A DNA stretch of 11,037 nt from a virus, in UHGV virus genome UHGV-0862315, one strand, 5' to 3'. The notes beneath the pieces are model-generated. The model ran no database searches. It saw only the letters and a program-made list of their open reading frames with translations, and had not been told where the DNA came from. Made by a program: the position numbers and the translations under genes. Of this stretch, positions 5,700 to 6,766 are shown in pieces; the first letter of the stretch is position 1; every line of letters begins with the position of its first letter.

Positions 5700-5891
5700 A
5701 CGATGGGTTAATTCGCTCGTTGTGGTAGTGAGATAAAAAGAGGCGGCGCTTACTACCGATTCCGCCTAGTTGGTCACTTCGACGTATCGTCTGGAACTCC
5801 AACCATCGCAGGCTGAGAGGTCTGCAAAATGCAATCCCGAAACAGTTCGAAGGTAATAGTTAGAGCCTGCACAACGGTTTCGGGATTTTTT
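5700..5891 (+). ncRNA. short PR' leader transcript (lambda 6S RNA equivalent) ending at tR'
   Basis: Predicted start about 7 nt after the -10; ends at the terminator 5834-5892; no ORF with an RBS in between. Assigned by analogy to the lambda 6S transcript. Confidence 0.5.
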
Positions 5892-5892
5892 A
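5834..5892 (+). terminator. tR'-like intrinsic terminator
   Basis: atcccgaaac (5834-5843) pairs with gtttcgggat (5877-5886), followed by ttttttat. Confidence 0.6.
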
Positions 5893-6250
5893 TATCTGCA
5901 CAACAGGTAAGAGCATTAAAGAACTGGCAAAGAGCTTAACGGTCTGCGAAAGCATTTCTTAGTGGCACAACTGGCCGGTACAACTGAGTGCTCTTTCCGG
6001 TGTGGTGAATGCGCAGGCTGATGCGCGCAGGAGAGCTTCGGAAGAACAAGGTGCCTGTATACAAGCCGGAGATCAGCGCCGGCCACCACAGCCAAATCCA
6101 CCCAGAGCAAAACCGTTGTTCATCCTTACCATTCCCTCAGTATTTTGGACTACAACCCTCAGCCCATTTTTTAAAGCGTACTTCCACCAAGAACTAGACC
6201 TAACCAACTCATTGCTGACACTCTGTGGATACGGTTGTCTAGTGCGCTTT

Positions 6251-6279
6251 AAAAAAGAAACCCAGCATCAATGGCTGGG
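6251..6279 (-). terminator. candidate minus-strand intrinsic terminator
   Basis: Stem cccagc (6261-6266) / gctggg (6274-6279) with a 7-nt loop. On the minus strand it is followed by tttctttttt (complement of 6251-6260). No supported minus-strand gene lies upstream of it. Confidence 0.35.
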
Positions 6280-6423
6280 CTTCGTGATATGAGCGGCATG
6301 TATTGTTGGCGCAATCCACGCCTGATTTGCTCATGAATGCGGTCACGAACAAACCCGTTACAAATCAACCGTAACCCGGATTTGTTCAAGCGACCATATC
6401 CATAATTCCTAATTTGAACAGAT

Positions 6424-6436
6424 CCCCTTCTGGGGG
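6424..6436 (+). promoter_or_regulatory. hairpin just upstream of the S start codons (lambda sdi-like element governing the choice between the two starts)
   Basis: cccc-ttct-ggggg ends 6 nt before the S ATG, followed by tandem starts Met1-Lys2-Met3 (ATG 6443, ATG 6449). Confidence 0.45.
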
Positions 6437-6442
6437 TAAGAC

Positions 6443-6766
6443 ATGAAGATGCCAGAAAAACATGACCTGTTAGCTGCCATTCTCGCGGCAAAGGAACAAG
6501 GCATCGGGGCAATCCTTGCGTTTGCAATGGCGTACCTTCGCGGCAGATATAATGGCGGTGCGTTTACAAAAACAGTAATCGACGCAACGATGTGCGCCAT
6601 TATCGCCTGGTTCATTCGTGACCTTCTCGACTTCGCCGGACTAAGTAGCAATCTCGCTTATATAACGAGCGTGTTCATCGGCTATATCGGCACTGACTCG
6701 ATTGGTTCGCTTATCAAACGCTTCGCTGCTAAAAAAGCCGGAGTAGAAGATGGTGGAAATCAATAA
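6443..6766 (+). CDS. S: class I holin / antiholin S (107 aa, dual-start motif MKM)
   Basis: [41 protein letters not shown]... has hydrophobic transmembrane segments and a charged C-terminus; close match to lambda S (recalled). Confidence 0.9.

Follow-up and report, generated by a model that had tools for sequence, protein, structure and literature searches.

The stretch of viral DNA analysed here, 11,037 nucleotides (nt) of the genome UHGV-0862315 and hereafter called the window, belongs to a lambdoid or P22-like prophage, and this report concerns its segment at 5900-6340, between the end of Q (5621) and the start of S (6443). The upstream part of this interval, comprising the promoter PR', a 6S-type leader and the hairpin of the terminator tR' (5833-5887 and the T run), is nearly base-for-base that of lambda. 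Beginning 8 nt past the T run, on the plus strand, is the most significant structure of the segment: a covarying RNA element at 5899-6094 that is predicted to fold as a hairpin, P1, followed by a four-way junction (Table 1). A preliminary description, made from the sequence of the window, had proposed a structured RNA element in the segment and had sought it in the nested repeats at 6167-6256. A structured element does exist, at another place than proposed and absent from that description, and the nested repeats prove to be mainly the tails of terminators.

By BLAST, the segment at 5900-6340 is 99.3% identical to phages HK620 and HK633, and the chromosome of E. coli HS is 100% identical over 5890-6100 (211 nt compared). 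None of the four open reading frames (ORFs) in the segment has a Pfam match and the HK620 record annotates no coding sequence there; protein coding is therefore rejected, in agreement with the earlier judgement that the segment holds no credible ORF. Aligned with lambda, the segment shows lambda-like flanks around a differing interior. This, too, had been recognized, but the preliminary description missed that the conserved stem P1 (5902-5915 / 5989-6001) is also present in lambda, as is the beginning of the helix after it. In lambda, CACAACAGGUAAGAGCA ... AGUGCUCUUUCCGUUGUG are retained but enclose another interior, and GUGCUG...CAGCAC stands at the place of GUGGUG...CACCAC in the window. Its P1 scaffold (L004 ~1000-1160; ~44.80-44.96 kb) is accompanied by a 9-bp P2-like helix (GUUGUGCUG/CAGCACAAC) with a different inner junction, and a plus-strand terminator follows. 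Because the P1 scaffold and the 9-bp helix are both present there, the tR'-S spacer of lambda appears from its sequence to belong to the same RNA group, although it would share the element only in part, namely the P1 scaffold and the start of the next helix.

Covariation of the plus-strand fold

The predicted fold was examined in an alignment (A2) of 96 distinct scaffold sequences from which the variable arm had been removed, with pairs counted against shuffles and slid partners. Cells were paired in 91.3% of cases, as compared with 81.4% after shuffling (none of 500 shuffles reached the observed value) and 27-47% with slid partners. Both sides of the pair have changed in 20 of the 25 pairs. 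In the closing helix P2 such double changes affect nine of ten pairs, and the helix has been completely replaced in sequence in many copies, for example by GGAGCCGG/CCGGCUCC, GAUUGGAUG/CAUCCAAUC or UGCAGAUG/CAUCUGCA; the hairpins P2a and P2c likewise covary, and the proposed contact between their loops is 98.8% paired. The suggestion that the segment might be simply a diverged ancestral spacer is refuted by this covariation.

The minimum free energy fold recovers P1 only on the plus strand (z -1.6 vs +0.5). More than 100 viral contigs, and lambda as well, contain both strands of this hairpin; it has compensatory variants of its own, such as GGUAAGGGUA/UACCCUUACC and GUUGAGAACAC/GUGUUCUCAAC, and its apical region, VAR1, measures between 45 and 192 nt across copies. 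Many non-enterobacterial copies have a hairpin of unrelated sequence adjoining P2. Because G.U combinations outnumber A.C combinations by 53 to 13 in the aligned copies, and because the z-scores are better on the plus strand, the data favour a plus-strand RNA as the functional form. We regard the fold and its distribution as solid.

One side observation concerns the 3' strand of P1, which at 5989-5996 reads UGCUCUUU, identical to the opening 8 nt of the rrn boxA (UGCUCUUUAACAA), and continues with the GU-rich GUUGUGGUG. The likeness could reflect a Nus-factor site or a coincidence; in the P1 hairpin this strand is base-paired.

Table 1. Features of the Q-to-S interval, in window coordinates, with the basis on which each was assigned
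Feature	Position	Strand	Description or basis
Late terminator tR'	5833..5891	+	Arms 5833-5847 / 5873-5887, then T run; lambda-identical
Domain 1, hairpin P1 (predicted)	5899..6001	+	CAC 5899-5901; 5' strand AAC-A-GG-U-AAGAGCA 5902-5915; VAR1 5916-5988; 3' strand UGCUCUU-U-CC-GGU 5989-6001
Domain 2, four-way junction (predicted)	6001..6090	+	Covariation; plus strand z -2.5 vs -1.2
P2 closing helix, 7 bp	6001-6007 / 6084-6090	+	Covariation
Invariant AAU linker	6008-6010	+	Copy alignment
Hairpin P2a, 5-bp stem, GCGCA-GGCUGA-UGCGC	6011-6026	+	Covariation
Proposed loop-loop pairing	6017-6021 with 6073-6077	+	Complementary GCUGA / UCAGC loops
Variable arm VAR2, GCAGGAGAGCUUCGGAAGAACAAGGUGCCUGU (+AUACAA), 38 nt	6027..6064	+	Sequence match to SW16-7
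Hairpin P2c, 5-bp stem, GCCGG-AGAUCAGCG-CCGGC, abutting the P2 3' strand	6065-6083	+	Covariation
G and CCA right after P2 (tRNA-like 3' end)	6091..6094	+	Read in sequence
Single-stranded C/A-rich 3' tail	6095..6146	+	Layout: tail, then terminator, in most lambdoid copies
Weak intrinsic terminator (HK620 "tQ")	6147..6172	+	GGACU 6147-6151 / AGCCC 6161-6165, A, U6 6167-6172
Nested inverted repeat	6167..6256	+	Outer arms 6167-6182 / 6241-6256; inner 6193-6199 / 6237-6243; conserved 58-nt core
Intrinsic terminator	6251..6283	-	10-bp stem (6 GC) and 7-nt loop 6283-6257, U6 6256-6251
Candidate antisense small RNA, 65-70 nt	6251..6320	-	Variable 5' part, conserved GCCGCYCAU..UCACGAAGCCC core, terminator; alignment A3
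Weak promoter-like site	6324..6352	-	TTGTTC 6352-6347, 17 nt, CAAATC 6329-6324; by eye

Distribution and genomic neighbours

The element is widespread. Three scans of viral contigs returned at least 120 matches each; at least five phage families include copies, which are also seen in prophages of alpha-, beta- and gammaproteobacteria and sometimes stand inside tRNA arrays. The 104 nt at 5987-6090 are 99% identical (BLAST) in T1-like phages of Klebsiella and E. coli, which are unrelated and carry them just upstream of tRNA genes, and the first 40 of these nucleotides recur in many of 115 matching phage records, which include Drexlerviridae, N4-like, Ackermannviridae, P22-like and lambdoid phages. 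An exact 19-mer, AAUGCGCAGGCUGAUGCGC, accompanied by paired P2 and P2c, is found in alpha-, beta- and gammaproteobacterial genomes and also in a small number of metagenome bins from other phyla; roughly 15% of the 19-mer genome matches are due to chance and lie inside a conserved high-GC coding gene. The 19-mer AATGCGCAGGCTGATGCGC, in the context atgtcgatcgccag..., accounts for chance matches in L338, L351, L355, L376, L387, L397 and others, which are false positives of the pattern search.

Among lambdoid prophages, tR'-type terminators of various kinds immediately precede the element, which in most of these copies is succeeded by the tail and then by an intrinsic terminator. The layout of lambda recurs in Pseudomonas prophages, where a sigma-70 promoter is followed by a short leader with its terminator and then by the element and a further terminator. 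Lambda, other lambdoid prophages and Pseudomonas prophages all carry the scaffold at this site. It is therefore a regular occupant, whose inner modules are exchangeable, and the earlier suggestion of a remnant of an inserted element finds no support. Two of the Pseudomonas prophages (L379 and L129) carry a 187-amino-acid gene (phrog_3412), followed by a good match to a sigma-70 promoter, TTGACG-17-TAAATT, the terminated leader, the element and the terminator; this layout suggests that phrog_3412 is a Q-like antiterminator. A general rule that the element always stands behind a Q-type antiterminator was rejected, as its neighbours elsewhere include recT, ssb, KTSC-domain genes and a tail gene. 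The Q-to-holin interval of the K-12 prophage DLP12 holds no copy of the element. In L009, L016, L098, L105 and L215 a second P1-type unit follows the first after ~10-110 nt, in the manner of the members of a tRNA array.

Rfam 15 contains no matching family, whether the whole window (E up to 1), its two halves (E up to 10) or compact copies from other genomes are searched, and the only signals in these scans were a local rydB-like hairpin and chance matches. The rydB gene of E. coli K-12 (L314 2714-2781, minus strand) contains GCCGGAGAUAAGCGCCGG, identical to P2c at 17 of 18 positions, and then a strand that pairs upstream. RydB is without the AAU linker or P2a and shares only the P2c-like hairpin, which may be a chromosomal remnant or a coincidence. 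Our search of the literature found no description of the fold, and a catalogue of ~10,000 unnamed viral RNA candidates could contain it (PMC10690425).

Likeness to tRNA and the variable arms

The junction follows the order of a tRNA cloverleaf, with a closing helix, a short linker, a 5-bp hairpin, a variable arm and a second 5-bp hairpin that abuts the 3' strand. In the window this likeness extends to the 7-bp length of the helix (6001-6007 / 6084-6090), to P2c ending at 6083, and to G6091 with CCA at 6092-6094. A CCA stands no more than 2 nt from the end of the helix in 43 of 90 copies of enterobacterial type and in 17 of 55 others. A tRNA gene lies within 1.5 kb of 26 of the 171 copies, in 25 cases with a tRNA on the same strand, and seven tRNAs start 4-19 nt downstream of P2. 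The element differs from tRNA in that there is no anticodon arm and no D-loop or T-loop consensus, the linker measures 3 nt, and 5-6 Watson-Crick pairs take the place of the elbow contact. ARAGORN reports 0 tRNA genes in the window, and the tRNA model RF00005 has no match on 5880-6110 at E up to 10. With both searches negative and the D-loop, T-loop and anticodon features absent, identity as a tRNA was rejected.

VAR2 of the window matches the Salmonella Ackermannviridae phage SW16-7 over 34 of 34 nt, one copy of the element encloses a whole tRNA in its VAR2, and T-arm-like motifs occur in 20 of 166 upstream regions. In SW16-7 the 34-nt module fills the anticodon-arm position of a tRNA-shaped gene (L313 1478-1566) with a normal D arm, a normal T arm and an ACCA end, which ARAGORN labels "tRNA-???" and the record tRNA-Pro. 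VAR2 of L028, L036, L075 and L102 resembles helix 11 of 16S rRNA (GGUGGGGUAAUGGCUCACCAUGGCGACGA; 26 of 29 positions identical to E. coli 16S 254-282), with compensatory changes in the stem; mimicry of host rRNA as a general property of the arms was rejected, as this helix-11-like module is the only one that matches. Hammerhead-like cores (CUGAYGAG ... CGAAAC, three stems) appear in VAR1 of L022, L067 and L090 and in VAR2 of L130. At the gathering threshold Rfam calls no hammerhead in L022 or L067, and the window itself is without such a core. A "tmRNA" reported by ARAGORN at L002 2410-2784, spanning the element and a downstream tRNA-Met, is almost certainly an artefact of a tRNA 3' half joined to a structured upstream region.

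Two groups of phage RNAs invite comparison. The rnaC and rnaD genes of T4 (the stable RNAs "species 1 and 2") are likewise encoded in a phage tRNA cluster and have tRNA-like ends (a T arm in rnaC) around a large non-tRNA interior, but no similarity of sequence or motif to the element was found; we know of no function established for them after decades. GOLLD and ROOL are structured noncoding RNAs (ncRNAs) of phages and prophages, often situated beside tRNA genes and sometimes enclosing one, and to our knowledge their function has not been established either. They differ from the element in being three to four times larger, in occurring mainly in Firmicutes and other hosts, and in having unrelated folds, and neither has an Rfam match here.

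Facing terminators and a candidate antisense RNA

Downstream of the junction lie the features on which the preliminary description had concentrated. The 12-bp inverted repeat that it reported (ttttttaaagcg at 6167-6178 and cgctttaaaaaa at 6245-6256) is present, as is the inner 7-bp repeat, whose halves (actagac 6193-6199 / gtctagt 6237-6243) are exact reverse complements. A repeat search extends the outer pair to 16-nt arms, 15 of 16 positions being complementary (94%), and a perfect 12-bp arm with a loop of up to 100 nt arose in 2 of 300 dinucleotide shuffles of 5900-6340; the hairpin at 6167-6256 has z = -3.6 on the plus strand. The sequence AAAGCG comes after the U-tract of each terminator, and the outer repeat is made of the U6+AAAGCG tails of two facing terminators. 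Its stem is retained in the divergent copies L033 and L034, with a change from U.G to C-G, and the inner 7-bp repeat is conserved in neither. The 58-nt core at 6183-6240 (CCACCAAGAACYAGACCYAACCAACUCAUUGCUGA...) is better conserved in L033 and L034 than the terminator stems; yet it would be expected to be transcribed only through read-through.

The plus-strand member of the pair corresponds to the late terminator that HK620 annotates as "tQ", which maps to 6146-6172. It has U6 and a stem of five pairs with a mismatch (free energy, dG, -1.2), the window having GGACU where HK620 has the intact GGGCU, and other copies have strong terminators at this position. On the minus strand, the GC-rich hairpin previously noted is longer than reported, with ten pairs at 6257-6283 followed by TTTTTT. 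It folds better on this strand (z = -3.0) than on the plus strand (z = -1.5), one of its pairs is G.U here and would be A.C on the other, and its stem covaries in L034 (CCCAGC/GCUGGG vs CCCGC/GCGGG). The hairpin thus combines a GC-rich stem-loop, an immediate U run and a covarying stem, as an intrinsic terminator does; it had rightly been called terminator-like, and it closes a plausible antisense small RNA (sRNA) of 65-70 nt. Facing terminators at 6147-6172 (+) and 6283-6251 (-), with S starting at 6443, are the arrangement of a convergent sRNA locus. The features first described are real but ordinary, being two facing terminators and a likely antisense sRNA.

The promoter-like site upstream of this candidate is conserved in L034 as TTGTTC-17-CAAGAT. 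In position and orientation the candidate agrees with AgvB/AsxR and PasA/PasC, and it resembles the prophage anti-sRNAs in being short, with a variable 5' part, a conserved 3' part and an intrinsic terminator facing that of the plus-strand RNA. Its 5' region shares CAACAAUA with the seed of AgvB. The 3' conserved region and the terminator, however, differ from those of AgvB and AsxR (alignment A3): their conserved 3' 42 nt (GUAUCUCAUGCWAUUGCCCGAACCCAYUCGGGC) are not present, and RF02702/RF02703 have no match in 6100-6445 at E up to 10. The terminators are ~80 nt apart in the window, as against 6 nt in the Sakai prophage Sp5. AgvB and AsxR are marked by a primary transcript of 51-60 nt, their own promoter, dependence on Hfq and pairing with a core sRNA; the minus-strand candidate shows a weak promoter-like site. 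With PasA (sequence from E2348/69) it has a common layout and no clear homology. The plus-strand RNA would begin with CACAACA (5899-5905), and CAACAAUA lies in the minus-strand candidate at ~6298-6312. CACAACA is the consensus target of the R1 seed of GcvB (PMC4104026), and either RNA could, to judge from these motifs, act as a GcvB sponge.

Relation to STnc100 and the convergent prophage loci

Downstream of PR', the moron site of lambdoid prophages is known to contain convergent sRNA pairs, including the antisense AgvB and AsxR (Tree et al. 2014, PMC4104026), and PasD with the antisense PasA and PasC occupies the same sites in enteropathogenic E. coli (EPEC) (Pearl Mizrahi et al. 2021, PMC8550237; PMC13192938). 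STnc100 (RF02076)/EcOnc27, with the related PasD and EcOnc13, comprises prophage-encoded Hfq-associated sRNAs of Salmonella, enterohaemorrhagic E. coli (EHEC) and EPEC. Like the element, STnc100 lies on the plus strand at the lambdoid moron site, with Q/PR' on one side and the lysis genes on the other, and is convergent with an antisense sRNA. Its core opens with an 8-bp helix (GCAUGGUG/CACCAUGC) and AAU(C), continues with a 5-bp hairpin whose loop has 6 nt and with variable hairpins, and closes with another 5-bp hairpin set directly against the 3' strand; when the Rfam consensus structure is set against the predicted fold, the window matches the order of this core as well as the tail and the terminator. 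STnc100 and PasD also have the layout of a tail with a terminator, their seed regions lying in the tail (PMC8550237). PasD is itself a weak STnc100 match, and one copy of the element (L080) joins P1 and GUGGUG-AAU with a last hairpin of STnc100 type, CCGGGAGGCACCCGG. The sequences of the hairpins differ, however, and STnc100 has no P1 domain, no complementary GCUGAU/AUCAGC loops and no CCA. RF02076 (gathering threshold 47 bits) has no match in the window at E up to 10; in the positive control, Sp5, it scores 207.7 bits, Rfam calling STnc100 (EcOnc27) on the plus strand there with AsxR facing it. The function of STnc100 is not known (PMC12370729). Because position, facing candidate antisense RNA and core order all parallel STnc100/AsxR, the window holds a variant of the known convergent-sRNA type of locus, in which neither RNA belongs to a curated family.

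Interpretation and alternatives

We consider it probable that the segment comprises two convergent phage genes for small RNAs, the plus-strand RNA being expressed late and acting in trans through exchangeable arms. Transcription, processing and function would then take the following course. Once Q permits read-through of tR', and thus in the late lytic phase, PR' would give rise to an RNA of ~270 nt (5899-6172) made up of P1 with its variable tip, the junction, G-CCA, the tail and the weak intrinsic terminator. It would fold into a compact, nuclease-resistant body stabilized by the junction, the scaffold lending stability and possibly end processing of the tRNA type. Acting in trans, it would owe its specificity to VAR2, VAR1 and the tail, either by pairing with RNAs of the host or by serving as a decoy for a host factor that binds RNA or targets tRNA. 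The minus-strand RNA of 65-70 nt would end at the 6283-6251 terminator and act like the prophage anti-sRNAs.

Several observations weigh against this interpretation. Our literature search found no expression data for the locus or its close relatives. The Rfam models of STnc100, AgvB and AsxR do not match the window, and kinship with STnc100 would rest on architecture and on the one hybrid copy, L080. A covariance model of the scaffold alone (R1) cannot span VAR2 and misaligned the window; it matched nothing in lambda, T4 or the STnc100 loci either, and is therefore uninformative. STnc100, EcOnc27 and PasD are seen as RNAs of 170-250 nt that span the junction (PMC4104026, PMC8550237), which argues against tRNA-like cleavage in these relatives. 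CCA is found in under half of the copies, and only 15% of copies are near tRNA genes. For the contact between the loops, compensatory changes are confined to two related copies (GGUCGA with UUCGAC), and the sequence conservation of P2a is overstated, since the search pattern of two scans prescribed its sequence; P2c was found by fuzzy matching. At dG -1.2 the plus-strand terminator is very weak in the window, and on the minus strand a consensus scan finds no sigma-70 promoter, nor the TTGTTC-17-CAAATC site.

A wider form of the proposal is possible, and we advance it tentatively. The element may represent a large, unlisted superfamily of cloverleaf-shaped phage ncRNAs that would take in STnc100/EcOnc27/PasD and the lambda tR'-S spacer. 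A common scaffold, with its closing helix, AAU, two loop-locked hairpins and often CCA, would carry exchangeable specificity arms (a T-arm mimic, a 16S helix-11 mimic, hammerhead-like cores, whole tRNAs), would be matured like a tRNA, and would serve as decoy or guide against host RNA-binding or tRNA-targeting systems.

It is unlikely that the segment serves transcriptional insulation only. On this view it would be a stack of terminators, the backup one on the plus strand silencing the late genes in the lysogen and the one on the minus strand keeping antisense transcription out of Q, with no role in trans for the hairpins upstream. Two facing terminators are indeed present, many copies of the element lie between two terminators, and tandem terminators in the lambda late leader were reportedly described by Luk and Szybalski in 1983. 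Insulation nevertheless fails to explain junction loops that are conserved in sequence across three proteobacterial classes and several phage families, copies in the tRNA arrays of lytic phages lacking a Q system, or identical variable modules common to unrelated scaffolds.

Rather improbable, in our estimation, is an element acting in cis on the late transcript, whether as an entry site for RNase P, E or III that trims the 5' leader or as a Nus-factor (boxA-like) or put-like signal that aids the polymerase. The element is the first thing transcribed past tR' in lambdoid and Pseudomonas prophages, its fold resembles an RNase P substrate (7-bp helix and NCCA), and some copies have hammerhead-like cores in their variable arms. 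Many copies, however, are not at the head of an operon, being found after recT or ssb, before a tail gene or in tRNA arrays; and although UGCUCUUU in the 3' strand of P1 matches the start of boxA, this strand is base-paired and variants lose the motif.

Conserved flanks around hypervariable inserts, some of them identical in unrelated phages, might also be read at the level of DNA, as a decayed tRNA array or as a joint of recombination or mosaicism at which homologous cassette exchange preserves the flanks, and the tandem copies, the T-arm-like motifs upstream (20 of 166) and the VAR2 with a whole tRNA would suit such an origin. We hold this to be very improbable in view of helices that stay paired despite full replacement of their sequence (P2 double changes in 9 of 10 pairs) and a four-fold excess of G.U over A.C; ARAGORN and the tRNA covariance model find no tRNA, and in a decaying pseudogene the invariant AAU and the loop sequences would not survive across proteobacterial classes.

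Earlier ribozyme classes came from the same kind of neighbourhood, and the element, a compact junction of several helices that has conserved unpaired nucleotides and a proposed tertiary loop-loop contact, with copies beside phage tRNAs and in some cases hammerhead-like cores, could recall a catalytic RNA for the processing of phage transcripts, for instance a new self-cleaving ribozyme. This is the least probable of the explanations, a most doubtful one, since no site of cleavage is apparent and full-length forms of the relatives STnc100 and PasD accumulate (PMC4104026, PMC8550237).

Significance

The Q-to-S interval of lambdoid phages has usually been viewed as a spacer or as a landing pad for morons, and here it holds a conserved, covarying RNA, whose fold is common to phages of many families and is absent from Rfam 15. 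With the P1 scaffold present in lambda, deletion and probing experiments would be easy to carry out there. The comparison also supplies an architecture for STnc100/EcOnc27, which are abundant sRNAs of EHEC, EPEC and Salmonella. If the variable arms are specificity modules, the element would constitute a natural "RNA display scaffold" in the conflict between phage and host and, if true, this would provide a new reason for phages to carry tRNA-like genes.

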